A program made the translations under genes and the position numbers. Of a stretch of DNA of 64,000 nucleotides, positions 11,373 to 31,687 are shown piece after piece; positions within the stretch are counted from its first letter, which is position 1, and the number at the start of each line of letters is the position of its first letter. The stretch comes from Candidatus Nomurabacteria bacterium (lineage in GTDB: Bacteria; Patescibacteriota; Minisyncoccia; Phycocordibacterales; JACOZG01). The DNA lies in the NCBI GenBank assembly GCA_020847275.1, contig JADLCI010000007.1, forward strand, positions 27,814 through 91,813. Direction: 5' to 3'. The notes beneath the pieces were generated by a model that saw only the letters and a list, made by a program, of their open reading frames with translations, searched no databases and was not told the DNA's origin.

Positions 11373-11381
11373 TATTGCATT

Positions 11382-11753
11382 ATGCGTGGGCTGAAATTTT
11401 TTCTCACTGGCTTAGTTGGCCTTAGTGTCAATCTCGGCGTGTTTAATTTGCTGTATCTTTTAGGGTTGCCGTATCTCTATGGGTCGGTTATGAGTTTTCT
11501 TGTTGCAATGGTCGTTGGTTTCCTACTTCAAAAGTATTGGACCTTTGAGGATTGCTCTCGTGAACGCGCATATGTTCAGTTCGCATCATATGCCGCATTG
11601 ACGTCGTGTAATCTTTTATTAAACACATTCATCGTGTACGCGCTTGTTGATTACGCCGATGTTTACTATCTTGTCGCTCAAGCCACAGGGGCAGGGCTGC
11701 TATCTCTCCTTAGTTATTTTGTCTACCGTTTCTACATTTTTAGGGGGTCTTAG
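11382..11753 (+). CDS. GtrA-family small membrane protein (polyprenol-phosphate-sugar flippase-like)
   Basis: The protein is 123 aa with four predicted TM helices. N-terminus FFLTGLVGLSVNLGVFNLL and the WTFE motif are typical of GtrA. Confidence 0.75.
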   Translation: MRGLKFFLTGLVGLSVNLGVFNLLYLLGLPYLYGSVMSFLVAMVVGFLLQKYWTFEDCSRERAYVQFASYAALTSCNLLLNTFIVYALVDYADVYYLVAQATGAGLLSLLSYFVYRFYIFRGS

Positions 11754-12467
11754 TGACATCAGGCGATAACGAAGTATTTGGAGCACCATCTTAAGGCCAA
11801 TTTTTGCTGCCTTTGCCACACTCTCCCCGGTGTACATTGAGGTACCGATGCGCTCTTTATAGATAACGGGGATCTCTATGGGTTTCCATCCGCGACGTAT
11901 TACCCAGATCATGATCTCAATGGAAAAAGCGTCTTTGCCATCAGATAAGTAAAATAAGTCAAAAATACTGTTGAGAACTCCGCGCGAGAAAAGTTTGTAT
12001 GAGCAACTCACGTCAGTCATACTGGGCCCATTATGTAAAACCTCTAGGAATTTTGCCACGGCCCAGTTACCAAGTCGAACTGGAAATGGCATGAATGCTC
12101 CTGACCAAATAGCGGCACGAGATGTCCGTGTTCCAAAAATAACCTCGAAGTCGTCTGTATACGATAGGAATTTGTGAACGTCTTGTGGTAAAAATGTACC
12201 GTCTCCCTCCACTGTTATAACAAGATCACCAGTGGCTTCGTGTAGCCCGCGCATCATGGCGTTTCCGTATCCTTGATGCTCCCTTTCCTCTACTAACCGT
12301 GCTCTTGTTTGTGCTACTTCCATTTTTGTATTGCCAAGTGCGTTGTTGTCAATTACCACAACCTCATCAACCACACCGGTGTCAAAAAGTCCATTTATGA
12401 CGGCACGGATGCTACCCTCCTCATTGTAAGTCGGGATTATAACACTTACGGTCTTACCTCTGTGCAT
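11700..12467 (-). CDS. GT2 polyprenol-phosphate glycosyltransferase (GtrB/DPM1-like)
   Basis: VSVIIPTYNEEGSI...DEVVVIDNNALGNT...GDLVITVEGDG contains DxD-type GT-A motifs. The gene converges on gtrA-like and the two 3' ends overlap by 54 nt. Confidence 0.8.
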   Translation of the reverse strand: MHRGKTVSVIIPTYNEEGSIRAVINGLFDTGVVDEVVVIDNNALGNTKMEVAQTRARLVEEREHQGYGNAMMRGLHEATGDLVITVEGDGTFLPQDVHKFLSYTDDFEVIFGTRTSRAAIWSGAFMPFPVRLGNWAVAKFLEVLHNGPSMTDVSCSYKLFSRGVLNSIFDLFYLSDGKDAFSIEIMIWVIRRGWKPIEIPVIYKERIGTSMYTGESVAKAAKIGLKMVLQILRYRLMSLRPPKNVETVDKITKER

Positions 12468-12596
12468 ACTGGTAAATTATAAGAAAACTTCCGTTTATGA
12501 TTCTTACAAAGAATAGCATGAAAGGCTGTTTTTTGATAAGATGGTTGGCTGTAGATAACAGTGAATTTTGTGACAAGGTATACTATCTTAATTGTG

Positions 12597-14375
12597 ATGA
12601 ATAGATTAAAGGGATTTCTGTTGAGATATCGCTTTTTGGTTGTTCTCGTTGTTGTCACGCTCGCTCTCACTCTTATACCAATAATCGATATTTATATTGT
12701 ACTTGGAGATAAGTGGCAAGGGGTCCCACCGACCTTCACCGATGAAACATTTTATTACGCACGGGTTCAGTCAATAGTGGAGGGGGGATTTGTTGGTGGT
12801 CATCCGTATTTTTTTGAACATCGTCATGATCCACCGCTCGTGGTTTTTGCTGGAGCGTGGGTAAATGCGATTCCTCAGTTACTTGGTCTACCACTCAATT
12901 CTGCATTGTTGGTAAACTTTATTCTGTGGAGTTTATTGTTTGTTTTGTCACTCTATTATTTGTTTAGGGAATTGCTAGTGCCACCCTCTTTATCCGTTTT
13001 TTTCACCCTTCTTATCTATGTTCAGTCGTATGCGCATGTGTGGCGTCCGGTTAATCTTCAGCCGGTGTACCCCCTTTATTTTTTGTTTTATGTCGCCCTC
13101 TTACATCTAATTTGTAAACAGAATCTCCGAAATATTATTTGTCTTGGTTTTGCCGTTGGCGCAACGTTTTATTTTTTTGCTTATCTTTGGCAAGTTGCTG
13201 TAGTGACGCTTGGGCTACTACTTTTTTATACACTTGCTCGTAGGAAGTGGCAATTATTGAAATCCACACTCCTTTCTTTAATTATCGGTGTTGTTATTGG
13301 CCTTCCAGTACTACTCTATGCACTCTGGCTTTCACACGGATCACCATATTTTTGGGAAAGTGTCGGTCGTCTCGGTCTTGTAAATACTCATCTACCTATG
13401 GCTGAAGTAATATATTCGGGCGGGTGGATCGGTCTGGTCTTCGTTTTATTGGTGGTTTTTTATTTAAACGCCCGTGAATTACGAAATGACAAAAACCTTA
13501 TAACGATAAATACGTTTATTGTTATAAGTGGAATGGGGCTTTGGTTAATGCAGGGAAGTAATCTTGTTACTGGTAAGCTACTGGAGACAGGGGAACATAT
13601 TCGCACGTTAATTCTACCGTGGCTCGTATTTTCCACCGTCAGTTTCGGTGTATTGTTCTGGAGACGACGGACACTCGTTTCAATAAGAACACGGGCGCTT
13701 CTGACCATTTCAATTGCGATATTATTTAGTGTTAGTCTGTATTATACCCACTACTATTTCCGTCCCTTTCTTCCTGGAAATGTCGACCACGGGGCATGGC
13801 AAATTGAACAGCTCTACGCCGGGCCATTTTCGTGGTTGCAAAACGAAGAGAAAAATTCTGTGGTTGTGTGGAGTGAGCCACGCGATTATTTAACGACTAA
13901 TTTGCCTATATTTACTAGACATTTCACCCTTTATAATTATTTTGGCATGTTGGAGTTGATTCCTGAGAGCGAAATACGTGAAAGGTATCTTATCTCGCAG
14001 TATTTTAATAGTCCTGCACTCACAGATTTTAAATCTGAACGAGAAATGGAGCTTTACCTTGGCCGTCATGATTTTCCTCATGCGGCGAAAACCATTGAGC
14101 GTGGAATTAAGATTTGTCGTTTACTGTCTTTTTGGAATAAGGGTAAAGATTGTGGCATACCTCCTACACCACAGAGTCTTCTTGGTGATAGGTTTTTTGT
14201 CGATCTTGAGAGTCAGTTTAAAAACGATATCGTGCCAAACATCAGGTCGTATCTTAAAAAATACAATGTTTCTTATATTCTTAAAGATAAGATACTTAAC
14301 CCAAGCTATAGACCAGAAAGCTTGGGGGCGGTACTTGTTTACAGCGACTCTCGCTATGAGATCTACCGTCTTTAG
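12597..14375 (+). CDS. Polytopic membrane protein with a C-terminal soluble domain; putative GT-C type glycosyltransferase or polymerase
   Basis: More than 10 hydrophobic helices are followed by a roughly 200-aa hydrophilic domain. The gene sits with GtrA and GT2. The track start at 12561 is an alternative upstream start. Confidence 0.5.
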   Translation: MNRLKGFLLRYRFLVVLVVVTLALTLIPIIDIYIVLGDKWQGVPPTFTDETFYYARVQSIVEGGFVGGHPYFFEHRHDPPLVVFAGAWVNAIPQLLGLPLNSALLVNFILWSLLFVLSLYYLFRELLVPPSLSVFFTLLIYVQSYAHVWRPVNLQPVYPLYFLFYVALLHLICKQNLRNIICLGFAVGATFYFFAYLWQVAVVTLGLLLFYTLARRKWQLLKSTLLSLIIGVVIGLPVLLYALWLSHGSPYFWESVGRLGLVNTHLPMAEVIYSGGWIGLVFVLLVVFYLNARELRNDKNLITINTFIVISGMGLWLMQGSNLVTGKLLETGEHIRTLILPWLVFSTVSFGVLFWRRRTLVSIRTRALLTISIAILFSVSLYYTHYYFRPFLPGNVDHGAWQIEQLYAGPFSWLQNEEKNSVVVWSEPRDYLTTNLPIFTRHFTLYNYFGMLELIPESEIRERYLISQYFNSPALTDFKSEREMELYLGRHDFPHAAKTIERGIKICRLLSFWNKGKDCGIPPTPQSLLGDRFFVDLESQFKNDIVPNIRSYLKKYNVSYILKDKILNPSYRPESLGAVLVYSDSRYEIYRL

Positions 14376-15099: not shown

Positions 15100-16215
15100 A
15101 TGAAAATCTATTATGTTGCAAACGCTCGTATGCCGAATGAAAAAGCGCATGGTATACAGATGGCAAAAATGTGTGAAGCGCTGGTTGAATCTGGTGTTGA
15201 CCTAACGCTACTGGTGTCAAACAGGGGATCTGGAAGCCTGAAACAGTTTTATGGTCTCACGTGTGAGATACCGACACGACGATTGCCTGTGGTGGACTTA
15301 CAATTTTTTGGTCCAATCGGTTACCGGGTTACGGCGCTACAATTTATTATCAGGGTGTTACTCTATTTATTTGTGAGATTGTTCAAAGATAAAATGTTTG
15401 TTGTCTACACAATCGACATGGATTCATTTTCTTTTGCTCCGCTAATTTGTATACCGCGCCCAGTTTTTGCAGAGATGCACAGTGTTAAGAAGGTCAACTT
15501 TCTGACAAGGACTTTTTTTAAGCGTGCAAAAATCATTGCAACAAATCAGCCAATTGCCGATGATTTATCGAAAGAATTTAACATTTCCCCACATGGTATT
15601 TCTGTTGAACCAAACGGTGTGGATGAAGCAGCCTTACGAGATTTTATTTCACAACAAGATGCTCGTAGAAAACTTAATTTGCCGTTAGATAAGTCATTTG
15701 CTCTATATGTTGGACGCTTTTACAAGTGGAAAGGCATGGAAATACTCGCAGATGCGGCCACAGATTCTATCCTTCCCATTTATGTTGTTGGTGGTGGGCG
15801 TGATGAGTATGAAAGTGTGACAGGTAGAAGTGGCGAGCGGTTACATTTTGTTGGAGGAAGACCAACTTATGAAATAGTATCGTGGCTTGCCGCGGCGGAC
15901 GTACTAATCGTACTTGGGACCGCAAATAATAAGGAGTCTTACTCTTATACATCCCCCATGAAAATATTTGAGTATCTTGCTGCTGGTAGGCCTACAGTGT
16001 CTTCACGGACGCCCGCTGTAATGAGTATCCTTAGAGAAGGCGTGACTTTTTGGTATGAACCGGACAACGCACAGTCACTGGGAAAAACCATAAGCTTGGC
16101 ATATACCAGTCCAGAATCGAAGGCTAAGGTACAGAAGGGTCGTGAATTGACAGAAAGGCATACCTGGCGTAAGCGTACGGAGCGGATTCTAAATTTTATC
16201 AAGTATGGAAATTAA
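15100..16215 (+). CDS. Glycosyltransferase family 4
   Basis: MKIYYVANARMPNEKAHGIQ is a GT4 N-terminus and GT4 motifs follow C-terminally. The track ORF starts earlier at 15025. Confidence 0.8.
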   Translation: MKIYYVANARMPNEKAHGIQMAKMCEALVESGVDLTLLVSNRGSGSLKQFYGLTCEIPTRRLPVVDLQFFGPIGYRVTALQFIIRVLLYLFVRLFKDKMFVVYTIDMDSFSFAPLICIPRPVFAEMHSVKKVNFLTRTFFKRAKIIATNQPIADDLSKEFNISPHGISVEPNGVDEAALRDFISQQDARRKLNLPLDKSFALYVGRFYKWKGMEILADAATDSILPIYVVGGGRDEYESVTGRSGERLHFVGGRPTYEIVSWLAAADVLIVLGTANNKESYSYTSPMKIFEYLAAGRPTVSSRTPAVMSILREGVTFWYEPDNAQSLGKTISLAYTSPESKAKVQKGRELTERHTWRKRTERILNFIKYGN

Positions 16216-17203
16216 AAAAGCGTTAACGTTCCGGGCATCGTCGATCGGTGATTGTCTGATGGCAAAGTATTTATTGGAAAACATTCATGCGAAGTTTCCT
16301 GGGGCACGTTGTGGGATTGTGATTGCAGGTAGGGGGGCGATGATCCGGGATTTGTTTGCCGCTTATCCGTGGATAGAAATAATTGAGGCCAACCGTCGTG
16401 ATGTGGGTGCAATAGTTCGCTTGTGGCTTAAATATCGTGGTAGTGATTTGGTCGTAACACAATATGCTGGTAAGCCTGGCGGTAGGTTCAGTCTCGCAAG
16501 CAAGCTAATGGGTAGATTGTTAGCACGCCGTGGTGGACTAGTTGGGTTTAGTGATTCTTCCACCTGGAACAAGTTTTTGTTTTCTAAAACCATTTTAGTC
16601 AGGCAAGATCAATCTGTGGTCTGGCATGAACGTGAGATCTTGCGCCTGTTTGACATACCCGTAGTGTTTTCGTTTCCCGTTCTGGTCCCGTTTAAAAATA
16701 CCAATATTCTTAAACGGTTCAACCTTGAAACAGGGCGATTTATAGTTGCACATCTTTTTTCTGGTAACACTATTCGGGGAATGTGTCCGGAGAAGAAGGG
16801 GAAATTACTTGCTACTGTATCTAAAAAATTTCCCGATTTCCAGCTCGTGATTAGTGGTGGAACACAAGACAGGGAAGAGGCATTGTCTGTTGTAGAAAAT
16901 ATCCCGGCCGTTGTTGTCGCTGGCGAGGTGACAATCCAGGAGATGATAAGCCTTATCAGCACAAGTCACGGAGTGGTGAGTCTGGATACTGGTATGGCAC
17001 ATATCGCGGCACAGCTCGGTGTTTCTCTGGTCGTCATGTGCTCGTGTTTTGGACGGAATTGGTGGTTTAGTGACCAATATGGGGTGGGGGCTAAAATTAA
17101 TGTGTTCTCTTGTGAAGAGATGTGCATTGGCGGACACGTAACTAAAAATTATCCCGACTGTATCAATGAAATTTCGATTGAACAAGTCGTGAATGTTATT
17201 TAA
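16205..17203 (+). CDS. Glycosyltransferase family 9 (heptosyltransferase-like)
   Basis: N-terminal SIGDCLMAKYLLENI and C-terminal VVSLDTGMAHIAAQLGVSLVVM match the GT9 donor-binding motif. Confidence 0.7.
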   Translation: MEIKKALTFRASSIGDCLMAKYLLENIHAKFPGARCGIVIAGRGAMIRDLFAAYPWIEIIEANRRDVGAIVRLWLKYRGSDLVVTQYAGKPGGRFSLASKLMGRLLARRGGLVGFSDSSTWNKFLFSKTILVRQDQSVVWHEREILRLFDIPVVFSFPVLVPFKNTNILKRFNLETGRFIVAHLFSGNTIRGMCPEKKGKLLATVSKKFPDFQLVISGGTQDREEALSVVENIPAVVVAGEVTIQEMISLISTSHGVVSLDTGMAHIAAQLGVSLVVMCSCFGRNWWFSDQYGVGAKINVFSCEEMCIGGHVTKNYPDCINEISIEQVVNVI

Positions 17204-17205
17204 CT

Positions 17206-19131
17206 ATGCAAAATCAGTTTAGGCAAGAGGAAAAAGATAACGCCTGCACACTGGCCCTACTCTCTGAGTTGGGACAGGTTGGGGAGTTGGAACGTTTCCT
17301 GTTGGAACAACCAGGGACGGTTACCGACTACTTGATTGTGGCGCTTTCTTTAGAAATTGAGACAAAGTTAGAAGAACGTGGGATTTCTTTTGTTTCGGTG
17401 GGTCGCTATAAAAAGATATTCCCAGATCAATTGATTGATGAAGACGTGATGATGGCGGAATTTTTCTCCGATCAACGGTGGAAAAAATTTAGTTATCGCG
17501 GGATCCCATTACTGATCACGTTCAGATTTATGTTTCGTGCCTATCTTCAGCGAGCGCGCTACTATAGTAATTTGCTTATTTCGATACTGGAAACTCATCA
17601 GGGGGTGAGTCGTCTGGTCCTGTTTTCTCCAAGCGAAAAAATATCTAATACATTTGGCAACCTCGCCAAACGTGAGATTAATGTCGTTGTAGATTGTGCA
17701 AAAACAATAGCGTCTATTCGCGGTATTTCTGTTACGGTTATACAACCCAAATCATTCGCCACACTTCGTGATTCCCTAAGGCCGGTACTTTTCTCGGCCC
17801 AACGGGCGATTTTTGGTTTTTTGTTGATTTTATGGAATGCGGTAGTTGTTACTTCACGACGGTCACGACACCCACGTTTGCTGATAAGTGATCATTGGGG
17901 AAACGTTGGTTCGTCTATAAGGTTGCTTAAATATGGCGAATGTATTTTTTTTGATCGTTCAGAGATCAAATGTATCAACTGGCGGCTACTTCTTCGTTAT
18001 CGGATGCGGTTTGTGCACTTTGAAAATTTTCTAACACATAAGATGTGTGTGCGTGCTAAGGAATGTGGACGAGAGTTTATTGATATATGGAATAAGATGC
18101 GAGGAGGTGTCCCTTCGGTTTTCTCGTTCCAGGGCCATTCCCTCGACCCTCTATTCCTTGGTGTGGTCGATGATGTGGTATATAACCTTGAAAAAACACT
18201 TTATCAGATCGAGGGCGCATATGCGATGTATGAAAAATTACAACCCGATCTGGTTATGTTACGTGCGAGTGTGAGCGGGCAGACACATTTTTCTGTTTTA
18301 CCACTGGTGGCGAAGATGTGTGGTATCCCGTCTCTTGAATTACAGCATGGACTAGAATATCTCGGACCTGGTTCTTGGTCGCGAGAGCATGTTGCTGAAT
18401 ATATTGCAGTTTATGGTTCTCTTGTGAAGAAGGAACTGGTCTCAATTGGTTGTGTGGCAGATAAAATCTGGGAAGTTGGTTCACCTCGTATGGATAATTA
18501 TCCGGTATTCAAAGAGAAAAAGATCAAGGATATTTCACGCGGAAAGTTAACATTACTTTGTATTGCGCCTGATATTCGCCCCTTTGAAATATATGATTCG
18601 TATAGTGCCGAAGAATATTTTAAGGTGATTGCGAGGGCGGTTGAGAAACTGAAGGAGAAACACATTATTGTCAAATTGCGTCCTGGTCCCGCTAATGACG
18701 GGTTGCTTCGTGCAATTATTGCTCGTGCATTTTCTCATATACCTTACACAATAGCGCAGAATGAATCTATCGCCGATTTATGTGTTCGAGCTGATGTTGT
18801 AATTTCATGTTACTCAACCACAATTCTAGAAGTGCTTAGAATTGGTTTGCCTACCATCATTCCAGTGTTGAATCGGGTTGACGCGATGGTGACAGAATTT
18901 CATTTTTCTCGGTACCATGACGCTGGTGCTTTACACATAGTGTCTAACCATCAGGGACTTACGGATATCCTCTTGAGGCTTGTTTCTCACCCGGAATTAC
19001 GTGATGAGTTACGAAAAAATGCTTATTCCTTTATTAGAAACAACTTTTGTTTTGATGGAGACTCTTCTCGTCGACTTACGACACTTGTCCTTGAATTGGC
19101 AGCCAAAAAAGCTTCTCGTAAATTAAGCTAA
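17206..19131 (+). CDS. TagB/TagF-like GT-B transferase (CDP-glycerol glycerophosphotransferase / capsule-synthesis fold)
   Basis: LLCIAPDIRP resembles the TagF AP-T-R motif. DVVISCYSTTILEVLRIGLPTI resembles the TagF ITDYSS...KP motif. The VELQH / GSPRMD motifs are shared with the downstream paralog. Confidence 0.5.
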   Translation: MQNQFRQEEKDNACTLALLSELGQVGELERFLLEQPGTVTDYLIVALSLEIETKLEERGISFVSVGRYKKIFPDQLIDEDVMMAEFFSDQRWKKFSYRGIPLLITFRFMFRAYLQRARYYSNLLISILETHQGVSRLVLFSPSEKISNTFGNLAKREINVVVDCAKTIASIRGISVTVIQPKSFATLRDSLRPVLFSAQRAIFGFLLILWNAVVVTSRRSRHPRLLISDHWGNVGSSIRLLKYGECIFFDRSEIKCINWRLLLRYRMRFVHFENFLTHKMCVRAKECGREFIDIWNKMRGGVPSVFSFQGHSLDPLFLGVVDDVVYNLEKTLYQIEGAYAMYEKLQPDLVMLRASVSGQTHFSVLPLVAKMCGIPSLELQHGLEYLGPGSWSREHVAEYIAVYGSLVKKELVSIGCVADKIWEVGSPRMDNYPVFKEKKIKDISRGKLTLLCIAPDIRPFEIYDSYSAEEYFKVIARAVEKLKEKHIIVKLRPGPANDGLLRAIIARAFSHIPYTIAQNESIADLCVRADVVISCYSTTILEVLRIGLPTIIPVLNRVDAMVTEFHFSRYHDAGALHIVSNHQGLTDILLRLVSHPELRDELRKNAYSFIRNNFCFDGDSSRRLTTLVLELAAKKASRKLS

Positions 19132-19140
19132 CATAGAATC

Positions 19141-20982
19141 ATGTCAATTTTTTCTAAAGAAATATTTGTTGTCTCGGAATTAAGACATATTGACGAAGCT
19201 TGTTTGCAATCTGGACGAGGAAAGACAATCCTCTGTTTTGACTATTTAGTTGAACAGGAACTGATAAAAAAGAATGTCCCACATCTTTCGGCGACAGATT
19301 TCGCAGACCGAGAAGGAGGCGAGGAAGAGTGGTGGAAACTTTCTCACCAGATTGCGGGTGACTGGTATCGTTTACCGACCATGAAGTTTTTCGAGTACCA
19401 GAGTATCCGAATTGCCGAAGCGCCAGAACCACTAATGCAGGCCTATCTGGCAAGGATATTTTATTATGTAAGATTATATTCTGTTCTTAAAAAAGATCGT
19501 CCAGATTCTCAATTGATTATTCCTGTCCCCACCGTCAGTGTATCATCATCACCAGACTGTTTGGCGGCGTTTCACCCGTGGGCAATTATAGACGCAGCAC
19601 GGATGGTGGGTTTGTCGGTTACAACAACAGATAATCGCACAAAAATTCGGTCATATGTATTTCCTAAAACCACGTGGAAGATTTTTATTCTGTGGCTATT
19701 CAATGTTTTTATTGGTTTCGCGCCCCCGCGACGTTTTAAGGTTTATTCCAGTGAATATTGGGCACACCTGTCCTCGGTTGTACCTTATTTAGACGACGCG
19801 GAACTTATACTTTTCGAGAGCAAGGAATTTTATAGGATACCATGGAAAAAAATTCTGAAACATCGTATTCGCGTTCGATATTCGGATGGGATAGTTAGTC
19901 GGTCGGACGAAAACAGAATTAGGAAAATCGCAGAGAAATTTGAAAGTGGTTGGAAGGATGCAAAAAAAGATATCGCACACTATCTTTCTGGTATATGTGA
20001 GAATTTAGAATGGGACCCAATACTCGAGGCCTGCGAACATATTATAACGTATGCGCCACGGGTTGTTGCCGATATAGACTCTCTGCGTAGCATTATGCTA
20101 GAAGAGAAACCAGACATCGTGCTTCAAATGGCATCGGTCGGTGGACCACAGCACTATTTCTTCCTCATGGCCTGTGTTGCGCGACAACTTGGAATAACCT
20201 CTGTTGAATTGCAACATGCGACGGCGACCATTGACCCCCGTTCCGTATTTAGCCGTCTTGAGACGGACTATTTGTTGACTTATGGCCCCGATATTAATTT
20301 GTGGCATGAACGCTTGGGACACGCCCATAATCGACTCGTTGCTGTTGGTTCACCGCGTTTTGATAAATATATTAATGAGCGTGCCCAAGGTCTTGAAAGG
20401 GGGAAAAAATTATTTAGGCAACTCGGTCTTGATGTTCGTAGGCCAGTTCTCTTCGTGGCTGTTCCTTTTTCTGACAACTTTGCGTCGGCGGTTGACTCCT
20501 ATCAGCTTGCCAGCTTTTTTAAGTCGGTCCGTGAAATACAGGACAGAATAAGCGGTCTGCAGATAATTTTTAAATGTCGTGCTCGTAGAGATGTTGCTGT
20601 TACCCAGAAATATCTATACGAATTGTTTCGAGGCGATTGGGTCGTATCTGCTAGCGAAGATATCTTTGCGCTTCTATCTGCGAGCGACGCGGTTGTTTGT
20701 AATAACTCAACGGTGATCTATCAGGCCGTCTTAACGAGAAGGCCGCTCGTTCTCTATCCTTGGAAATTTTTTGATTCATATCATGCACATGTCTACGCAC
20801 CGTTAATCCCTATTTTTTATAACCCAGAAGAGGCTGTCCTTGCGGTCTCGCGTATTTTCACAGACAAGGCATATCGTGACGATCTTCTGTTGCGTCAGGA
20901 ACAGTTTCTCGGGGGGTATTCTTTTGACGGAAAGTCTTCTCAGCGAGTAGCGAAAACTGTTAAGTTGCTTGCGAAAAGATAG
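19141..20982 (+). CDS. TagB/TagF-like GT-B transferase, paralog of the upstream gene
   Basis: VELQHATATIDP, VGSPRFDKY, VLFVAVPFSDN and DAVVCNNSTVIYQAVLTRRPLV share motifs with 17206..19131. Confidence 0.5.
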   Translation: MSIFSKEIFVVSELRHIDEACLQSGRGKTILCFDYLVEQELIKKNVPHLSATDFADREGGEEEWWKLSHQIAGDWYRLPTMKFFEYQSIRIAEAPEPLMQAYLARIFYYVRLYSVLKKDRPDSQLIIPVPTVSVSSSPDCLAAFHPWAIIDAARMVGLSVTTTDNRTKIRSYVFPKTTWKIFILWLFNVFIGFAPPRRFKVYSSEYWAHLSSVVPYLDDAELILFESKEFYRIPWKKILKHRIRVRYSDGIVSRSDENRIRKIAEKFESGWKDAKKDIAHYLSGICENLEWDPILEACEHIITYAPRVVADIDSLRSIMLEEKPDIVLQMASVGGPQHYFFLMACVARQLGITSVELQHATATIDPRSVFSRLETDYLLTYGPDINLWHERLGHAHNRLVAVGSPRFDKYINERAQGLERGKKLFRQLGLDVRRPVLFVAVPFSDNFASAVDSYQLASFFKSVREIQDRISGLQIIFKCRARRDVAVTQKYLYELFRGDWVVSASEDIFALLSASDAVVCNNSTVIYQAVLTRRPLVLYPWKFFDSYHAHVYAPLIPIFYNPEEAVLAVSRIFTDKAYRDDLLLRQEQFLGGYSFDGKSSQRVAKTVKLLAKR

Positions 20983-21034
20983 GGGCTCTCGTTCCCTTGT
21001 TGAGGTGGTATTTTTGTGTATACTTAATTCTGTG

Positions 21035-22054
21035 ATGAGTACCCAACAACTTAACGGTAAAACCGTCCTCATTACCGGAGGGACTGGTTCTTTTGGCAGG
21101 AATTTTTCTGAATATATTCTTGCGAATTCGAAGCTAAAGAAGCTTATTATTTTCTCTCGTGATGAGTTGAAACAATCAGAAATGGCCGCAGAAATGAAGG
21201 ATGAACGTTTGCGGTTTTTTATTGGTTGTGTCCGTGATCTATCTAGGCTTAGACGTGCTTTCACGGGGGTTGATATTGTTGTGCATGCGGCTGCCTTGAA
21301 ACAGGTGCCAGCACTTGAGTACAACCCCTTTGAGGCGGTGAAGACCAATATTCTCGGCAGTCAAAATGTAATTGAGGCGGCGATTGATCAGGGTGTAAAG
21401 AAAGTTCTTTTGGTTTCGACCGACAAAGCAGCAATGCCAGTTAATCTCTATGGTTCCACGAAGTTGTGCGCGGAGAAGCTTTTTATTGCTGGTAACTCCT
21501 ACAGTGCTAATGGAGATACACGTTTCAGTGCTGTTCGTTACGGAAATATTGTTGGTAGCCGGGGAAGTATCGTTGAAAAATTAGTTCTAGAGAAGGGGGC
21601 TCATACCGTTCATATTACTCACGAGAACATGACTCGTTTCTGGATGGATTTAGAACAGGCATTCCAGATTGTCCTAGCTGCGATTGATGCGATGGAAGGA
21701 GGAGAGATTTTTATACCTAAGGCTCCAGCAATGAAGTTAACTGATGTTTTTAATCTCCTGGCGCCTGGTGCTAAGCGTAACATTGTTGGCGTTCGGCCGG
21801 GAGAGAAAATGCACGAAGTTTTATTGACGAAGGAGGAAGCGCGTCACGCGGTTGAACTCAAAGAACATTTTGTTGTCTTGCCCGAAAATGTCAGTTCGTT
21901 GAGACAGAAGAAAGGACTTCAGAAATTTTTGAAACAAGGTAAGCCGCTAGCGACAGACTTTCACTTTTCAAGCAATGAGGGTGCTAGGCAGATGTCTTCA
22001 AAAGCGCTTCTCCAAATGGTGTCTCGTCTAGAAAAAACGATAAGAGACAAATGA
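21035..22054 (+). CDS. pseB: UDP-N-acetylglucosamine 4,6-dehydratase (inverting), PseB/FlaA1 family
   Basis: KTVLITGGTGSFGRNF, IIFSRDELKQSEMAAEM, DIVVHAAALKQVP...YNP, NLYGSTKLCAEKLF and RPGEKMHEVL are collinear with H. pylori FlaA1/PseB as I remember it. Confidence 0.88.
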   Translation: MSTQQLNGKTVLITGGTGSFGRNFSEYILANSKLKKLIIFSRDELKQSEMAAEMKDERLRFFIGCVRDLSRLRRAFTGVDIVVHAAALKQVPALEYNPFEAVKTNILGSQNVIEAAIDQGVKKVLLVSTDKAAMPVNLYGSTKLCAEKLFIAGNSYSANGDTRFSAVRYGNIVGSRGSIVEKLVLEKGAHTVHITHENMTRFWMDLEQAFQIVLAAIDAMEGGEIFIPKAPAMKLTDVFNLLAPGAKRNIVGVRPGEKMHEVLLTKEEARHAVELKEHFVVLPENVSSLRQKKGLQKFLKQGKPLATDFHFSSNEGARQMSSKALLQMVSRLEKTIRDK

Positions 22055-23193
22055 TCCCCTATTCCACCCAAGATATTAATGGGTCTGATATTCGGGCGGT
22101 TGTGAGGGTGTTACGCTCGGGATGGTTGACCCAGGGTCCAGCGGTGGTTAAATTTGAGAAAGCTATTGCAGAGAAGGTTGGTGTGCGCTTTGCTGTAGCG
22201 TTCAATTCTGGTACTGCCGCACTTCACGCAGCATATTTTGCTGCTGGTGTAGGTGGTGGTGATGAGGTTATTGTGTCCGCTCTTTCGTTTGCTGCCACGG
22301 CCAACGCGGCCCTGTATCTTAATGCGAAGCCAATTTTTGTTGATTCTGATATCGTGACTGGCAATATGAGTGTCGCTGATGCTATCAAAAAAATAACAAA
22401 TAAAACTAAGGCAATTGTCCCCGTTGACTATGCTGGTCGACCGGTTGATTTACGGGCATTTCGATTATTGGCAAGGAAACATGGGATAACTTTGATAGAA
22501 GATGCCGCGCAGGCGCTTGGATCAAAGTACGGTGGAAAATTGGTGGGGGTTCAAGCCGACATGACCATGTTCAGTTTCCATCCAGTGAAGTCAATTACCA
22601 CGGGCGAAGGGGGAGTAATTGTCACCGATAATCAGAAATTTGACAAGGCAATGCGCCTGTTCCGTAGTCACGGTATTAGCAGAGATGTAAAAACATTTTC
22701 ACGAAAAAACAACGGGGAATGGTACCAGGAGATGAAAGAACTTGGGTTTAATTATCGCATGCCAGAGATGTCGGCGGCGCTTGGTTGGAGTCAGTTGAAA
22801 CGTCTAGATTCTTTTATTTTAAAACGCCAGCTTGCGGCGGATCGATATCGTAAGTTGTTTGCCGGAGTAAGTAACATCATCATTCCACCAGTTGAGGGTA
22901 TTTATGAAAAGTCGGCATGGCATCTGTATCCTGTTAGACTGTCTCCATCTATTGCAAATAGGCGCGATGAAGTTTTTGCTAAGATGCGCAAGGCCGGAAT
23001 TGGTGTGCAGGTTCATCACCTTCCGATTTATCGCCACCTCTATTACGAGAGATTGGGTTATAAAAAAGGGTCTTGCCCAAATGCGGAAGAGTTTGTTGCT
23101 TCAGAAATATCCATCCCGCTATTTCCAAAGATAACTTTTCAACAGCAGAAATTCATTTCAGTTACACTAAAGAACATAATTGCTTCATTATGA
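22051..23193 (+). CDS. pseC: DegT/DnrJ/EryC1 family PLP-dependent sugar aminotransferase (PseC-like)
   Basis: LTQGPAVVKFEKAIAE...FNSGTAALH. A PLP lysine lies in the SFHPVKSITTGEGG context. The gene follows pseB with an ATGA overlap. Confidence 0.82.
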   Translation: MIPYSTQDINGSDIRAVVRVLRSGWLTQGPAVVKFEKAIAEKVGVRFAVAFNSGTAALHAAYFAAGVGGGDEVIVSALSFAATANAALYLNAKPIFVDSDIVTGNMSVADAIKKITNKTKAIVPVDYAGRPVDLRAFRLLARKHGITLIEDAAQALGSKYGGKLVGVQADMTMFSFHPVKSITTGEGGVIVTDNQKFDKAMRLFRSHGISRDVKTFSRKNNGEWYQEMKELGFNYRMPEMSAALGWSQLKRLDSFILKRQLAADRYRKLFAGVSNIIIPPVEGIYEKSAWHLYPVRLSPSIANRRDEVFAKMRKAGIGVQVHHLPIYRHLYYERLGYKKGSCPNAEEFVASEISIPLFPKITFQQQKFISVTLKNIIASL

Positions 23194-24521
23194 AGAGAGA
23201 TTTCAGAAAAGGCGGGGGACAAAAGCTTTGGCGGAAAGCGAAAGGTCTTATACCTGGTGGAAATCAACTTTTATCAAAAAGAAGTGAAATGTTTTTACCT
23301 GAACAATGGCCTTCCTATTACTCAAAAGCAAAAGGCATTGAGGTCTGGGATTTAGATGGTAACCGCTTTGTTGACATGTCTATTATGGGTGTTGGGGCGT
23401 GTCTTCTTGGCTACGGTGATCCTGATGTTGATCGCGCCGTAAAGAGGGCCGTAGAAACTGGTGTCGCGTCTACTCTCAATGCGCCAGAAGAAGTTGAACT
23501 TGCCGAACTGTTGTGTAAAATCCATCCTTGGGCTGATATGGTTCGTTATGCACGTTCTGGAGGAGAGGCGATGGCAATTGCCATCCGAATTGCGAGGGCG
23601 TCAACGGGCAGGGATGTGATTGCTTTTTGTGGTTATCATGGTTGGTCGGACTGGTATTTATCAGCAAATTTATCTGATGATGACAAGCTCGACGGCCACC
23701 TGCTTCCCGGTCTTGAGCCGAAGGGTGTGCCGCGTGGTCTTAAGGGAACACTCTTTCCATTTCACTATAATTCGATTGAGGAATTGGAAAAAATCGTAGC
23801 AGAACAGGGGCGTAGACTTGCGGCAATTGTGATGGAGCCAATGAAGGGAGAGGAGCCCAAGAATCATTTTTTGCATCAAGTGCGAGATTTGGCAGACAAG
23901 GTGGGCGCTGTCCTTATTTTCGATGAGATTACAATTGGCTTTAAAATGACATATGGTGGCGCTCACTTGCTCTGTGGTGTGAATCCAGATATTGCCGTGT
24001 TTGCTAAGGCGATTAGTAATGGTTATGCCATGGCGGCAATTATCGGGAATAAGAAAGTTATGCAGGCAACACAGACCACCTTTATTTCAAGTACTAATTG
24101 GACGGAACGTATTGGGCCTGTCGCGGCTCTGGCGACTCTTAAAAAAATGAAAAAATTAAATGTTTCTCGACGACTTAAGGAGGTGGGGGAACGTGTTCTG
24201 GAGATTTGGATTAATGCGGCAACACGACACAACCTTGCCATCGCAACCGGTGGCCTCCCGCCCCTGAGAAGTTTTTCTTTTAAATACGGTGAGGATAGTC
24301 AGGCACTGAAGACACTTTTTGTGCAGGAAATGTTACAGAGGGGATTTTTAGCAACCAACATGCTCTTTGCTTCGTATGCCCACACCGACATTTTTTTGGA
24401 TAAGTATGAAAAAGCGATAGACAGAGTTTTTGCTTACATTAAGGATACCCTTGATACTGGAACATTGAAAAAGAGACTCAGGAGCCCTGTAGCCCATACC
24501 GGGTTTTCTCGGCTCAATTAA
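23190..24521 (+). CDS. Class III aminotransferase (glutamate-1-semialdehyde 2,1-aminomutase-like)
   Basis: GSRLWDLDGNRFVDMS-type N-terminus, ARSGGEAMAIAIRIARASTGRD and IFDEITIGFKMTYGGA. The ATGA overlaps the pseC stop. The track start is at 23073. Confidence 0.75.
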   Translation: MKRDFRKGGGQKLWRKAKGLIPGGNQLLSKRSEMFLPEQWPSYYSKAKGIEVWDLDGNRFVDMSIMGVGACLLGYGDPDVDRAVKRAVETGVASTLNAPEEVELAELLCKIHPWADMVRYARSGGEAMAIAIRIARASTGRDVIAFCGYHGWSDWYLSANLSDDDKLDGHLLPGLEPKGVPRGLKGTLFPFHYNSIEELEKIVAEQGRRLAAIVMEPMKGEEPKNHFLHQVRDLADKVGAVLIFDEITIGFKMTYGGAHLLCGVNPDIAVFAKAISNGYAMAAIIGNKKVMQATQTTFISSTNWTERIGPVAALATLKKMKKLNVSRRLKEVGERVLEIWINAATRHNLAIATGGLPPLRSFSFKYGEDSQALKTLFVQEMLQRGFLATNMLFASYAHTDIFLDKYEKAIDRVFAYIKDTLDTGTLKKRLRSPVAHTGFSRLN

Positions 24522-24525
24522 CATC

Positions 24526-25302
24526 ATGATCGCTTCAATCATCCAAGCACGAGTGGGTTCAACAAGATTGCCTGGCAAGATATTAAAGCCAATCTTGGGT
24601 GTGTCGATGCTTGGGCGAATGATTGAGCGAGTAAAGCGTGCGAAAAGGCCTGATGTGATAATCGTTGCGACAACCGAAAAACCAGAGGATGATGTAACGG
24701 TCCGATTGGCGAAGAAATGTGGCGTCATGGTTTTTCGTGGTAGCGAACGGGACGTATTAGATAGGTTTTATGGGGCGGCCAAGGAAGTGGGTGCGGACAT
24801 GGTAGTGCGCCTTACGGGGGATTGCCCCCTTATGGATCCAGCGGTGATTGATTTGGTCATTGATAGTTTTCAAGAATCGAGAAAAATATTCGACTATTGC
24901 AGTACACCAAGCAATTATCCCGAAGGTCTTGATGTGGAGATCTTTACTTTTTCCACGCTTGAAGAAATGGCTCACGAAGCTAGACTACCTTCGGAGCGTG
25001 AACACGTTTCCCTTTTTATTAAGAATCATTCGGACCGCTTCACGAGTAAATCATTGCGCGATGGTGATTCTGATAATTCTTCTATGCACTGGTCGGTTGA
25101 CACTCAAGCGGACTTTGACTTTGTAACGAAAATTTTTGAACGACTTTACCCAACCAATCCTTTTTTCGACAGAGAGGATATTCTTGCATTACTTACAAAA
25201 CATCAGGAAATTTTGGAGATAAATAAAGGCGGGACTGGTTATGAGGGTTTAGCAAAGTCTTTAAGGGAGGATGAAGAAGCCGAGAATAAATTGAAAGTAT
25301 GA
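24526..25302 (+). CDS. Acylneuraminate-type cytidylyltransferase (CMP-nonulosonate synthetase, PseF/SpsF-like)
   Basis: IIQARVGSTRLPGKILKPI is the CTP_transf_3 signature. LTGDCPLMDP is the second family motif. Confidence 0.75.
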   Translation: MIASIIQARVGSTRLPGKILKPILGVSMLGRMIERVKRAKRPDVIIVATTEKPEDDVTVRLAKKCGVMVFRGSERDVLDRFYGAAKEVGADMVVRLTGDCPLMDPAVIDLVIDSFQESRKIFDYCSTPSNYPEGLDVEIFTFSTLEEMAHEARLPSEREHVSLFIKNHSDRFTSKSLRDGDSDNSSMHWSVDTQADFDFVTKIFERLYPTNPFFDREDILALLTKHQEILEINKGGTGYEGLAKSLREDEEAENKLKV

Positions 25303-26225
25303 CCTTGGGGAAAAATAAATTGGTACTTGGTACAGCACAGCTTGGCATGAATTATGGACTTCATAATTCTCATGGGCAACCCTCAAAGGAAGAGTCTTTT
25401 TCTATTTTGGATAGAGCTTTTTCTGTCCATATAAACACTTTTGATACTGCGCATTCTTATGGCGCATCCGAAGATGTAATCGGTGCTTGGGTGCAGGACC
25501 GATCTATGGCTAACAGGGTTAAGTTAATTTCTAAGATGAAACCAGACGCTATAAATGATTACCCTGATGGAATAAAATTCGTAGACGTTGTGCGACGGGA
25601 ATTGGATAAATCTCTCGCACGACTTCAGGTGGAAACTCTCGATGGTTATTTGTTCCATTCGCCACACTATATATATTTTGATCACATGATGGATGGACTA
25701 CAAAAGGTTCAAGATGCTGGGCTAGTGAAAAATATCGGGGTTTCTGTCTATAACGAATTAGACGCATTGCGGGCTGTTGAGCTGGGTGTAAATTATGTGC
25801 AGGTTCCCTACAATGTATTTGATCAACGGCTCCACCGTACCGATTTTTTTGATATTGCAAAAAATAATAAGATCACCATCTTCGCTCGCAGCCCGTTCCT
25901 ACAGGGTCTTTTGCTAATGCAACCCAGTGAATTACCAGGCCATCTTTCTTATTTCTCTTCCCACCTCGAACAGTTCATTGCTCTCACTAAACGCTATAAT
26001 TTGACACAGGTTGAGTGTGCGCTCCGATTCGTCGATGTTATGTGTCCCGCTGAGCACATTGTATTTGGTGTTGATACATTAACACAACTTGACGAGGGTG
26101 TTCGCGTTATGGGGGCGACTACTTCAGGTGCGGACGATGAATGGGTGATTGAAGCGCGGGATATTTTTAAAGACCTTAATTCCGGAATGATTAACCCAAG
26201 TTTGTGGGGTAAAATAAAGCGATAA
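25299..26225 (+). CDS. Aldo/keto reductase
   Basis: LVLGTAQLGMNYG...FDTAHSYGASE is the AKR N-terminal consensus. Confidence 0.8.
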   Translation: MTLGKNKLVLGTAQLGMNYGLHNSHGQPSKEESFSILDRAFSVHINTFDTAHSYGASEDVIGAWVQDRSMANRVKLISKMKPDAINDYPDGIKFVDVVRRELDKSLARLQVETLDGYLFHSPHYIYFDHMMDGLQKVQDAGLVKNIGVSVYNELDALRAVELGVNYVQVPYNVFDQRLHRTDFFDIAKNNKITIFARSPFLQGLLLMQPSELPGHLSYFSSHLEQFIALTKRYNLTQVECALRFVDVMCPAEHIVFGVDTLTQLDEGVRVMGATTSGADDEWVIEARDIFKDLNSGMINPSLWGKIKR

Positions 26226-26296: not shown

Positions 26297-27331
26297 ATGA
26301 ACAACAAGACTGTCAACATTGGAGGTCGCTGTGTAGGAGAAGGTCAACCTGTTTTTATTATCGCAGAGGTTAGCGCAAACCATCGCGGGAAGATTGAAAC
26401 CGCACTATCTGCTATTGACATAGCGGCAGATGCTGGTGCGGATGCAGTGAAGTTTCAACACCTAACCCATAATAAAATTGCCGCTGAACCGCTTTCTGAT
26501 TTTTATAAGTCTGCAGAATTGCCAGACGGTTGGACAGAAAAACTTGTTGAACGGTCAAAGAAAAAAAATATTTTTTTTCTATCAACGCCATTTGACCTAG
26601 AAGCCGTGGATCTTCTCGATGAAATTGGGGTCCCAGCTTTTAAGGTCGCGTCTTATGAGATGACCGACGATGTTTTGTTGCGACATATTTCTAGAAAGGG
26701 GAAACCGATTATACTTTCTACTGGTATGGCTTATCTTGAAGAAGTTAAACACGCGATTAACGTTATTAAGCAAGAAGATAATGAACAGGTAATTGCGCTC
26801 CATTGCGTTTCTCTCTACCCCCCTGAGTTTAGAGACCTGAATCTCCGAGTAATAGAAACAATGCGTCGAGAATTGGGCTGTCCAATCGGGTATTCTGATC
26901 ATGCGAATCCGTCATCGAATGTGGCAACTCTTGGCGCAATTGCTCTTGGTGCTTGCGTGATTGAACGTCACATAACCGACTCACAAGAAGGTGGCAGTAA
27001 TGATGATAAAAATTCAATGACGCCAGAGCAACTGAAACAAATGGTCATAGAGATTCGTGATCTTTCGGCGGCTCTCTCTGGTGCGGGAGTTAAGGCACCA
27101 GTGTCTGATCCTGGTCGTGGCGTGGACGAGATAAGAGAGCGTAGTACACGTCGTTCACTCTATGCTGTACGCGATATTGTTGAAGGGGAAGCTATGTCTG
27201 CAGACATGATTGTCACATTGAGGCCCATGAAAGGCATTGAACCAAAGGATTTTCAGCAAGTCATGGGTCGAAAGACGCTTCGTGCTATTTCAGCACGTTC
27301 GCCGATTACCTGGCAAGATATAGAGAGATGA
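26297..27331 (+). CDS. Nonulosonic acid synthase (NeuB/PseI/LegI family) with C-terminal SAF domain
   Basis: PVFIIAEVSANHRGKIETAL, AGADAVKFQ, GYSDH and a C-terminal SAF-like domain. Confidence 0.9.
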   Translation: MNNKTVNIGGRCVGEGQPVFIIAEVSANHRGKIETALSAIDIAADAGADAVKFQHLTHNKIAAEPLSDFYKSAELPDGWTEKLVERSKKKNIFFLSTPFDLEAVDLLDEIGVPAFKVASYEMTDDVLLRHISRKGKPIILSTGMAYLEEVKHAINVIKQEDNEQVIALHCVSLYPPEFRDLNLRVIETMRRELGCPIGYSDHANPSSNVATLGAIALGACVIERHITDSQEGGSNDDKNSMTPEQLKQMVIEIRDLSAALSGAGVKAPVSDPGRGVDEIRERSTRRSLYAVRDIVEGEAMSADMIVTLRPMKGIEPKDFQQVMGRKTLRAISARSPITWQDIER

Positions 27332-28215: not shown

Positions 28216-28221
28216 TAAAAA

Positions 28222-31045: not shown

Positions 31046-31094
31046 AGTTCAGCGTGCTAGTATTTAATCTTATTAATGCGTAATTAATGACCAC

Positions 31095-31673: not shown

Positions 31674-31687
31674 AACTAAGATAAAAT

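Follow-up and report, generated by a model that had tools for sequence, protein, structure and literature searches.

Two adjacent genes in a 64,000-nt stretch of a Candidatus Nomurabacteria genome (Patescibacteriota; assembly GCA_020847275.1, contig JADLCI010000007.1, positions 27,814 to 91,813; the whole stretch is hereafter called the window) encode paralogous proteins of the TagF superfamily, ORF1 and ORF2. We consider it fairly probable that both are membrane-associated transferases of the glycosyltransferase (GT) fold class GT-B, which use a cytidine monophosphate (CMP)-activated nonulosonate of the pseudaminic acid (Pse) type as donor and a lipid-linked surface glycan as acceptor. An initial annotation of the DNA had put the pair forward as candidates for this role, and sequence comparisons support the candidacy through relatedness to the BFO_1060 family, for which gene knock-outs offer a precedent, through a neighbourhood with NeuB and CTP_transf_3 genes, and through a homolog in which a transferase domain is fused to a CTP_transf_3 domain.

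To our knowledge, bacterial transferases of Pse and legionaminic acid (Leg) are poorly known: beyond the Maf and FlmG enzymes of flagellin and a few capsule enzymes, the TagB-like proteins of Tannerella are almost the sole precedent. As members of the TagF superfamily with homology to an already known, genetically defined kind of nonulosonate transferase, the two proteins have a predicted function that would not surprise a glycobiologist. By sequence, the pair is set apart from known Pse and Leg transferases by a BFO_1060 match below cut-off, greater length, an arginine in place of the leaving-group histidine, an ancient tandem duplication and membership of an unstudied Patescibacteria clade. 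It opens onto a large sister clade, in which every named member is from Patescibacteria and which is consistently linked to NeuB and a CMP-activating enzyme. If the proposed function is correct, the clade would provide a sequence set for the switch of TagF-type GT-B enzymes between phosphodiester and ulosonate transfer, including a natural His-to-Arg swap and a synthetase-transferase fusion. It would also imply that ultra-small episymbionts spend about 30 kb of a roughly 1-Mb genome on a sialic-acid-like coat, which would bear on host attachment or evasion. In the literature library searched, we found no report linking pseudaminic or nonulosonic acids to bacteria of the Candidate Phyla Radiation (CPR).

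Paralogy, fold and catalytic residues

ORF1 (17206-19131, + strand, 641 aa) and ORF2 (19141-20982, + strand, 613 aa) are separated by 9 nt, and ORF1 starts 2 nt past the stop of an upstream gene for a GT9 (heptosyltransferase-like) protein (16205-17203, +; TIGR02195 43 bits, below cut-off). Given gaps of only 9 and 2 nt, the pair and the GT9-like gene appear to form one operon. The two proteins align over 558 residues with 24% identity (BLASTP, E = 8e-34), and the initial annotation, which described two adjacent paralogs of about 615 to 640 aa, had their coordinates exactly right. On this sequence comparison they are true paralogs that derive from an ancient duplication; no third copy was found within the 64-kb window.

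Three shared motifs had been proposed for the pair, and they were recovered to different extents. GSPR(M/F)D is present in both proteins, as GSPRMD in ORF1 (residues 425-430; 18478-18495, +) and GSPRFD in ORF2 (residues 403-408; 20347-20364, +; found by hhalign and motif scan). It lies at the domain junction and is the equivalent of the TagF-family G-x-P-R-x-D, the ORF1 copy aligning with GVPRTD of TarL in both hmmsearch and hhalign. The literal VELQH occurs in ORF2 only; ORF1 reads LELQH, and the common core is ELQH. The third motif, given as (D/S)-x-V-x-(S/N)-x-(Y/N)-S-T, fits ORF1 as written (DVVISCYST, D530 to T538; 18793-18819, +), whereas its ORF2 counterpart (DAVVCNNST, D516 to T524; 20686-20712, +) has a Cys at the '(S/N)' position. 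The ORF1 motif corresponds to the nucleotide-binding motif 'DxLI(S/T)DYSS' of the TagF family and aligns with 'DLLISDYSS' of TarL. In an alignment of 80 sequences from the ORF1-type and ORF2-type families and distant members, H381, G425 and S537 were conserved in 80/80 and R428 and T538 in 79/80 (ORF1 numbering). At the level of sequence, the shared motifs are thus real family signatures rather than chance resemblances.

AlphaFold2 models built on the family alignments had mean predicted local distance difference test (pLDDT) scores of 87.9 (ORF1) and 88.9 (ORF2) and predicted template modelling (pTM) scores of 0.88 and 0.89, and both proteins were confidently modelled as a GT-B fold of two Rossmann domains. 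The TagF-like assignment of the initial annotation held up in sequence searches as well. Glyphos_transf was the sole Pfam family above its gathering score for either protein (ORF1 25.0 and ORF2 28.8 bits against 22.1, a marginal pass), and it aligned with the C-terminal part only (model positions about 134/155 to 366). Profiles of the ORF1 and ORF2 families searched against PDB sequences matched TarL (8VA1) and nothing else (E = 2e-7 and 4e-5, respectively). Compared by hhalign with seven canonical TagF-family proteins from plasmids, they reached probabilities of 97.4% and 96.2% over the C-terminal domain, with the register kept at G-x-P-R-x-D, DxxxxxYS(S/T) and DGxSSxR. Single-sequence phmmer searches of PDB sequences with ORF1, ORF2 and an 86-aa N-domain fragment returned nothing meaningful. 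Proteins 100% identical to the two ORFs carry the NCBI name 'CDP-glycerol glycerophosphotransferase family protein' (CDP, cytidine diphosphate) and are listed under Candidatus Nomurabacteria bacterium.

The models also contain a long hydrophobic helix with basic flanks in ORF1 (residues 187-217; 17764-17856, +), a likely membrane-interface element, with an equivalent in ORF2 (residues 179-195; 19675-19725, +). A 15-aa window with a Kyte-Doolittle hydropathy of at least 1.5 occurs at this helix in 65% of ORF1-type but only 15% of ORF2-type members. Together with a homolog fused to a GtrA membrane domain (P0094), the helix suggests that the pair may be membrane-associated.

Conservation of the catalytic histidines, which the initial annotation had singled out, was partial. 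The N-domain His is retained and invariant: it ends a beta-strand as H381 of ELQH in ORF1 (E378 to H381; 18337-18348, +) and as H359 in ORF2 (E356 to H359; 20206-20217, +), and is predicted to be the catalytic base. The reference position is residue 300 of TarL, the His of 'IIQVWH300A' in Staphylococcus epidermidis TarL, whose numbering is identical; PDB 8VA1 is the TarL H300N mutant. In restricted hhalign comparisons 'SLELQH381G' and 'SVELQH359A' paired with 'IIQVWH300A' and continued in register into GSPRxD, and the order of predicted secondary-structure elements agrees with H381 being the counterpart of TarL H300. An unrestricted, permissive hhalign run (mact 0.01) instead placed F362, beside H361 and one beta-alpha unit upstream, opposite H300. 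We rejected this register: restricted sub-alignments that held both histidines picked H381, the H361 column has Tyr in 15 of 80 sequences, and H361 is not conserved among ORF2-type proteins. Since the restricted alignments and the secondary-structure order favour H381, we take H381 and H359, with moderate confidence, as the putative equivalents of the catalytic-base His of TagF and TarL.

The C-domain 'HP' His, by contrast, has been replaced. In both paralogs the position of the His in the 'K-M-H-P' of TagF and TarL ('FKMH433P' in S. epidermidis TarL) aligns unambiguously with an Arg, namely R492 of 'KLRPGP' in ORF1 (K490 to R492; 18673-18681, +) and R480 of 'FKCRAR' in ORF2 (K478 to R480; 20572-20580, +). 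Across the 80 sequences this column holds Arg in 72, Lys in three and His in five, the five being distant, BFO_1060-like bridging members (P0283, P0286, P0287, P0289 and P0291) that read K-x-H-P.

Relationship to BFO_1060 and other transferase families

A profile of both paralog families, searched at E <= 1e-30, retrieved 405 clusters (50% identity); almost every one is about 600-640 aa long, and they lie within a wider superfamily of about 14,600 at E <= 1e-3. All named homologs belong to Patescibacteria (Nomurabacteria, Paceibacterota, Kaiserbacteria, Parcubacteria, Minisyncoccia, Magasanikbacteria and metagenome-assembled genomes labelled Saccharibacteria). ORF1-type and ORF2-type proteins form separable clades and are mostly encoded in tandem; among the related loci that we collected (L001 to L055), the ORF1 type stands alone in L003 and the ORF2 type alone in L004, L005 and L014. 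Some ORF2-type members are fused to a GtrA membrane domain or to an FkbM methyltransferase, whereas members fused to a GNAT domain (such as P0255 and P0266) belong to a third subfamily distinct from both types.

The nearest curated family, judged by sequence, is BFO_1060 and not TagF. NF046086 (BFO_1060 family glycosyltransferase) was the top NCBIfam match of both ORFs (31.7 and 28.4 bits, E = 1e-7 to 1e-8) and the commonest curated match among homologs (30/52 ORF1-type and 52/55 ORF2-type). TIGR04396 ('surface carbohydrate biosynthesis protein') was second in both families and TarL/TarF far behind, with 82 homologs matching BFO_1060 vs 16 matching TarF or TarL. Two of the bridging members, P0289 and P0291, reached 131.6 and 121.4 bits over nearly the whole BFO_1060 model (positions 45-364 of 365), and 87 and 78 bits with TIGR04396. 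A homolog search with P0289 yielded six proteins, none informatively named.

BFO_1060 is the ortholog, in strain 92A2 of Tannerella forsythia, of Tanf_01245 (GtfS) and TFUB4_00887; Tanf_01245 is a Pse5Am7Gra transferase and TFUB4_00887/BFO_1060 a transferase of a Leg derivative (PMC5420450, PMC6120980). Both are TagB-like GT-B proteins encoded beside CMP-Pse or CMP-Leg loci, and their knock-out deprives the S-layer O-glycan of its terminal Pse5Am7Gra or Leg derivative while CMP-Pse5Am7Gra still builds up (PMC5420450, PMC6120980). The proteins described here share with BFO_1060 the TagB/TagF-like GT-B architecture and the position beside a CMP-nonulosonate biosynthesis locus. However, BFO_1060 has 445 aa against about 613-641 aa, so that ORF1 and ORF2 are about 200 residues longer; they carry an extra N-terminal region of about 330 residues that includes the hydrophobic helix, and they have Arg where the bridging members keep the 'HP' His. 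Moreover, ORF1 and ORF2 are a tandem pair from Patescibacteria, whereas BFO_1060 comes from Bacteroidota.

With TagF, TarL, TarF and TagB (Glyphos_transf; PDB 3L7I and 8VA1) the pair shares the GT-B fold, a homologous C-terminal nucleotide-binding domain, the G-x-P-R-x-D, DxxxxDYS(S/T) and C-terminal DGxSSxR motifs, an N-domain His that ends a 'Q-x-(W)-H' strand (H300 in 'QVWH' of TarL, H118 in 'QTWHG' of TarF) and CMP as the presumed leaving group. It differs from them in the Arg at the C-domain His position (H433 in TarL, H258 in TarF) and in an N-domain whose similarity is too weak for confident alignment. At the ORF1/ORF2 locus, a cytidylyltransferase of the KdsB/NeuA type and a NeuB synthase replace the CDP-glycerol or CDP-ribitol genes, and the predicted reaction would transfer a glycosyl group at C2 of an ulosonic acid rather than form a phosphodiester.

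Three uncharacterised families of Leptospira type, LIC12162 (TIGR04331/PF27859), TIGR04326 and TIGR04396, resemble the pair in length (about 600 aa), in a TagF-like C-terminal half and in their location beside sialic-acid-type clusters. ORF1 and ORF2 nevertheless reach none of the cut-offs run: TIGR04396 gave 17.6 and 15.1 bits against a cut-off of 125, and the TIGR04331 and TIGR04326 models matched neither protein. Precomputed annotation assigns PF27859 ('LIC12162') to many ORF1-type homologs (32-37% identity), and ORF1 can be placed in an ORF1-type/LIC12162-like clade. Downstream of neuABC in Herbaspirillum AU14040, two adjacent genes encode a 'surface carbohydrate biosynthesis protein' and a 'LIC12162 family transferase', and the authors suggest that these proteins transfer sialic acid (PMC6679464). 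This pair adjoining neuABC indicates that the paired arrangement recurs outside CPR bacteria. We found no biochemical characterisation in the literature on LIC12162 or in later work on Tanf_01245.

The transferases of 3-deoxy-D-manno-octulosonic acid (Kdo) WaaA (GT30) and KpsS/KpsC and the sialyltransferases of GT38, GT52 and GT80 are likewise GT-B enzymes with a CMP-activated 2-keto-3-deoxy acid donor and a membrane-proximal acceptor. ORF1 and ORF2 differ from them in giving no hidden Markov model (HMM) match to any of these families and in lacking the HP and D/E-D/E-G motifs of the sialyltransferases. The initial annotation saw no classical sialyltransferase here, and indeed no GT38, GT52, GT80, GT42 or Capsule_synth (KpsS/KpsC) model in Pfam or NCBIfam matched either ORF at E <= 1, the HMM comparison with these families leaving Glyphos_transf only. 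A weak KpsS match was seen in one distant family member.

Genetic linkage and candidate reactions

Directly downstream of the pair lie genes for PseB, the inverting UDP-GlcNAc 4,6-dehydratase (20969-22054, +; TIGR03589 424 bits, above the cut-off of 407.75; translation probably begins at the ATG at 21035; UDP, uridine diphosphate), and the aminotransferase PseC (22051-23193, +; TIGR03588 463 bits, above the cut-off of 423.5). They are followed by a class-III (GSA-like) aminotransferase (23073-24521, +), which is kept beside the cytidylyltransferase in related loci, and by that cytidylyltransferase, a CTP_transf_3 protein of the KdsB/NeuA/PseF family (24526-25302, +; PF02348 111.5 bits). This enzyme, the predicted maker of the CMP-nonulosonate donor, is encoded 3.5 kb downstream of the pair and bears out the CMP-nonulosonate synthetase noted in the initial annotation. 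Its partner, an aldo-keto reductase (25299-26225, +), precedes a NeuB-family nonulosonate synthase with PseI as best match (26297-27331, +; TIGR03586 293.5 bits, cut-off 340; NeuB 279.8 bits).

We collected 55 related loci, of which 25 are non-redundant and reach 8 kb or more past the family gene(s) on the downstream side. A NeuB homolog is encoded in 17 of the 25, mostly with CTP_transf_3, PseB, PseC and the class-III aminotransferase; five more have PseB/PseC in a range that stops short of NeuB, and three (L041/L051, L052 and L034) have no nonulosonate genes in range. We do not count L041/L051 and L052 as counter-examples: a carrier-protein N-acylation block of about 10 kb fills the range there, and in L005 PseB follows such a block. 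In L023, a family gene abuts CTP_transf_3 with NeuB near, and PseB and PseC are absent, implying that the family is constantly accompanied by the synthase and the CMP-activating enzyme and not by the Pse-specific early steps. The GT9-like neighbour is syntenic in many related loci. We rejected it as a constant partner and as another candidate for nonulosonate transfer or hydrolysis, since L006 and L009 both retain the pair but lack the GT9-like gene, the full pathway being present in L006 too.

The link to activation is closest in P0198 (L054, 8001-10634), where an ORF1-type domain and a CTP_transf_3 domain (114 bits) form a single ORF of 877 aa, followed by a GT2 gene and, two genes away, NeuB; the L054 locus has no separate cytidylyltransferase. 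By its neighbourhood and this fusion, the family is connected with NeuB and CMP activation and not with CDP-polyol synthesis, which bears on whether ORF1 and ORF2 might be TagF-type phosphotransferases. Such enzymes would build a teichoic-acid-like phosphodiester from a CDP- or CMP-linked alditol-phosphate, sugar-phosphate or phosphonate and leave the nonulosonate to another enzyme, for example the GT9-like protein. Glyphos_transf as the sole above-threshold Pfam family, the NCBI name and TarL as the only solved sequence relative point this way. So do the constant pairing of CTP_transf_3 with an aldo-keto reductase or a GFO_IDH_MocA oxidoreductase, in formal likeness to TarI/TarJ, a kinase and an inositol-phosphatase-like gene that adjoin the cytidylyltransferase in L001, a family member with PEP-mutase/cytidylyltransferase phosphonate genes in L055 and a partial TagD-like ORF in L038. 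However, tblastn detected no TagD, TarI or TarJ in the 64-kb window and essentially none in the related loci, where it gave a weak cross-match to CTP_transf_3 of L011, a 38-residue TagD-like match in L015 and the L038 ORF; the canonical TagF-family genes that we examined adjoin TarI/TarJ or TagD. The substrates that CTP_transf_3 enzymes activate are 2-keto-3-deoxy-ulosonic acids (Kdo, Neu5Ac, Pse and Leg), and the cytidylyltransferase family thus points to ulosonic-acid activation. Added to these are the missing TagF C-domain His and the preponderance of BFO_1060 over TarF/TarL matches, and we regard phosphotransfer as unlikely.

For nonulosonate transfer, a pathway can be proposed from the gene content. 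PseB and PseC, by equivalog-level homology, would make UDP-4-amino-4,6-dideoxy-L-AltNAc, the amine of which would be N-acylated and the sugar freed from UDP, two steps for which no enzyme was recognised in the window. The NeuB/PseI-like synthase would condense the sugar with phosphoenolpyruvate (PEP), and CTP_transf_3 would convert the product to the CMP-sugar. As judged from the TagF/TarL alignment, the C-terminal Rossmann domain would bind CMP through (D)xVxxxxST, with K490/R492 on the phosphate. H381 (ORF1) or H359 (ORF2) would deprotonate an acceptor hydroxyl, which would attack C2 of the nonulosonate as CMP leaves, and the Arg in place of the TagF 'HP' His would stabilise the phosphate. 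An ABC transporter encoded at the end of the island would then export the finished glycan for transfer by a Wzy_C protein with tetratricopeptide repeats (TPR).

Both paralogs keep the full set of catalytic residues. They probably work one after the other or serve different acceptors, but they might also form a heterodimer or divide the work as primase and polymerase. TagB/TagF and TarF/TarL are paralogous pairs within one pathway, and by analogy one protein might be a TagB/TarF-like primase and the other a TagF/TarL-like processive polymerase that make a poly-nonulosonate at the cytoplasmic face of the membrane. After export by the ABC transporter, the chain would be ligated by the Wzy_C/TPR protein, giving a CPR episymbiont a polysialic-acid-like coat. 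Homology to a superfamily of primases and polymerases, the apparent catalytic competence of both copies and the ABC exporter are compatible with such a scheme, none of them being specific to polymerisation, and we consider it rather improbable.

Several observations weigh against a role in nonulosonate transfer. All the evidence is computational and functions across the clade are predictions from sequence, and the BFO_1060 precedent is itself genetic, an in vitro assay not being reported (PMC5420450, PMC6120980). The BFO_1060 scores of ORF1 and ORF2 fall far under the cut-off of 200 bits. The HP and D/E-D/E-G motifs reported for Tanf_01245 are absent: the conserved 'HP' site reads RP in ORF1 and R-A in ORF2, and neither protein contains [DE][DE]G. 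The match of H381 to TarL H300 has a probability of only 55-77%, and unrestricted alignment took the other register. CTP_transf_3 and the NeuB/PseI-like synthase both score under their equivalog cut-offs (PseF and PseI). Homologs of PseG, PseH, NeuC and LegG could not be recognised in the window or in L001-L055. Fold searches returned generic GT-B matches, with UDP-GlcNAc 2-epimerases, MurG and hydrolysing NeuC above TagF and TarL, which were mid-table; no sialyltransferase or polysialyltransferase was among the top structural matches, and the polysialyltransferases that the initial annotation had named for structural comparison thus failed to appear. Finally, relatives within the superfamily may handle other CMP-linked donors, such as the phosphonates suggested by L055. 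In that locus (5807-12370), P0255, with its C-terminal GNAT fusion, directly follows a phosphonate cassette (CTP_transf_like::PEP_mutase, a thiamine pyrophosphate-dependent decarboxylase, an iron-dependent alcohol dehydrogenase and a CDP-alcohol phosphatidyltransferase) and lies upstream of DegT, CTP_transf_3 and NeuB; an ABC transporter follows NeuB.

As annotated, the donor pathway is incomplete, given that no PseG or PseH is recognisable, and a targeted search of unannotated proteins, both in the window and in the related loci, turned up no hidden PseG or NeuC. One of the paralogs, or the whole clade, might therefore be an analog of PseG or NeuC/LegG that uses water as acceptor and frees the 6-deoxy-hexose from UDP before condensation. 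The presence of PseB, PseC, NeuB and CTP_transf_3 beside this gap would accord with such a hydrolase, as would the GT-B fold of PseG and NeuC, the epimerases and NeuC at the head of the fold searches and Epimerase_2 Pfam matches on several family members. PseG-PseH fusions occur in genome annotation, and the GNAT-fused P0255 and P0266 recall them. Those two proteins, however, belong to the third subfamily and not to the ORF1 or ORF2 types. The PseG model (TIGR03590) gave ORF1 only 13.5 bits (E = 0.04) against a cut-off of 153.55 and did not match ORF2, and the NeuC model (TIGR03568) matched neither. The homology, including specific motifs, is to enzymes with a CMP leaving group (the TagF family and BFO_1060); the large conserved N-domain with its hydrophobic helix argues for a membrane-bound glycan acceptor, and the CMP-synthetase fusion ties the family to a step after activation. 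In T. forsythia the homolog is dispensable for CMP-Pse synthesis, that species carrying its own pseG and pseH (PMC5420450, PMC6120980). A hydrolase is accordingly an improbable identity for the pair.

The fold searches also bear on whether ORF1 and ORF2 might be ordinary glycosyltransferases for nucleoside diphosphate (NDP)-hexoses, that is, GT-B enzymes that extend a backbone glycan from UDP-, guanosine diphosphate (GDP)- or adenosine diphosphate (ADP)-sugars and lie beside nonulosonate genes through operon packing. Most of the matches were to UDP- or GDP-sugar GT-B enzymes (MurG, GT4 and UDP-glycosyltransferases), some homologs have weak Glycos_transf_1 matches and the locus is dense with other glycosyltransferases. 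Against this, the sequence homology is specifically of the TagF/BFO_1060 type, and the link to NeuB and CTP_transf_3 outlasts extensive gene reshuffling and includes a gene fusion; we judge use of an NDP-hexose to be very unlikely.

The surrounding glycan island

The pair sits in a glycan island of about 30 kb, in which several GT4 genes, a GT47-like gene, a module of GT2, GtrA-like and polytopic membrane proteins, a methyltransferase, a further GT4 gene and the GT9-like gene precede it in that order. The module resembles the GtrA/GtrB/GtrC type that glycosylates outside the cytoplasm. It comprises a 123-aa protein of GtrA-like size with multiple transmembrane (TM) segments (11382-11753, +), a GT2 enzyme like polyprenyl-phosphate-hexose synthases (11700-12467, - strand; 85 bits with the AglJ model) and a 604-aa protein (12561-14375, +) that has about 10 TM segments, matches no family and has counterparts of 34-59% identity in L004, L005, L006, L009 and L014. 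Nearer the start of the island, a GT4 is split into overlapping ORFs with an N-terminal Glyco_transf_4 (6347-6889) and a C-terminal Glycos_transf_1 (6870-7331) domain, which could reflect a frameshift, a pseudogene or an assembly error.

Within the nonulosonate cluster, the class-III aminotransferase, CTP_transf_3 and oxidoreductase genes form a conserved trio (23073-26225; 16773-19824 in L003), the oxidoreductase being the aldo-keto reductase in the window and a GFO_IDH_MocA domain fused to CTP_transf_3 in L003. The trio suggests an oxidation/transamination step on the nonulosonate, possibly giving an extra amino group. Downstream of NeuB, genes for a methyltransferase, an ATP-grasp ligase and a second methyltransferase (27328-30278, +), whose order is kept in L006, probably encode nonulosonate tailoring. 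The region at 30281-32368 encodes a full-length IolB (5-deoxy-glucuronate isomerase, 223.8 bits, above cut-off), a truncated IolB/KduI-like cupin and a short-chain dehydrogenase/reductase (SDR); such content is unusual for a nonulosonate cluster, and L006 has a KduI-like gene at the matching place. An unknown protein is encoded between the SDR and a DUF218 protein (33288-33989, +). The latter is a constant companion of NeuB and CTP_transf_3 and, in L006, forms a fusion with the aldo-keto reductase; it may provide one of the steps missing from the nonulosonate pathway.

A different form of tailoring is suggested by blocks of about 8-10 kb that adjoin the transferase genes in L005 (12513-20082), L051/L052 and L054 (3056-7965). 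They contain ACPS, PP-binding, AMP-binding, MaoC dehydratase, KR, Antibiotic_NAT and DUF4910/DUF2172/HTH_47 genes and presumably encode carrier-protein-dependent N-acyl tailoring of the nonulosonate.

Two genes close the island: an ABC transporter of the MsbA/PglK type (34070-35830, +; ABC_membrane and ABC_tran), a probable exporter or flippase of lipid-linked glycans, and a Wzy_C membrane protein with C-terminal TPR repeats (35906-38029, +; Wzy_C 90 bits, TPR matches, multiple TM segments) of the O-antigen ligase/O-oligosaccharyltransferase type, which is the probable enzyme of final glycan transfer. Such an arrangement would fit export by the ABC transporter and a subsequent ligase or O-oligosaccharyltransferase step; neither a Wzx flippase nor an initiating phosphoglycosyltransferase was recognised within the window. 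SecA and housekeeping genes follow.

Directly upstream of the island is a gene for a TrwB/TraG/VirD4-like coupling ATPase (3670-5307), with the same synteny in the Paceibacterota locus L001. The island is also flanked by proteins with PKD, Kre9/KNH-like Ig and fibronectin-III domains (1988-3646 and 43961-44863), possible surface proteins and candidate targets of glycosylation.

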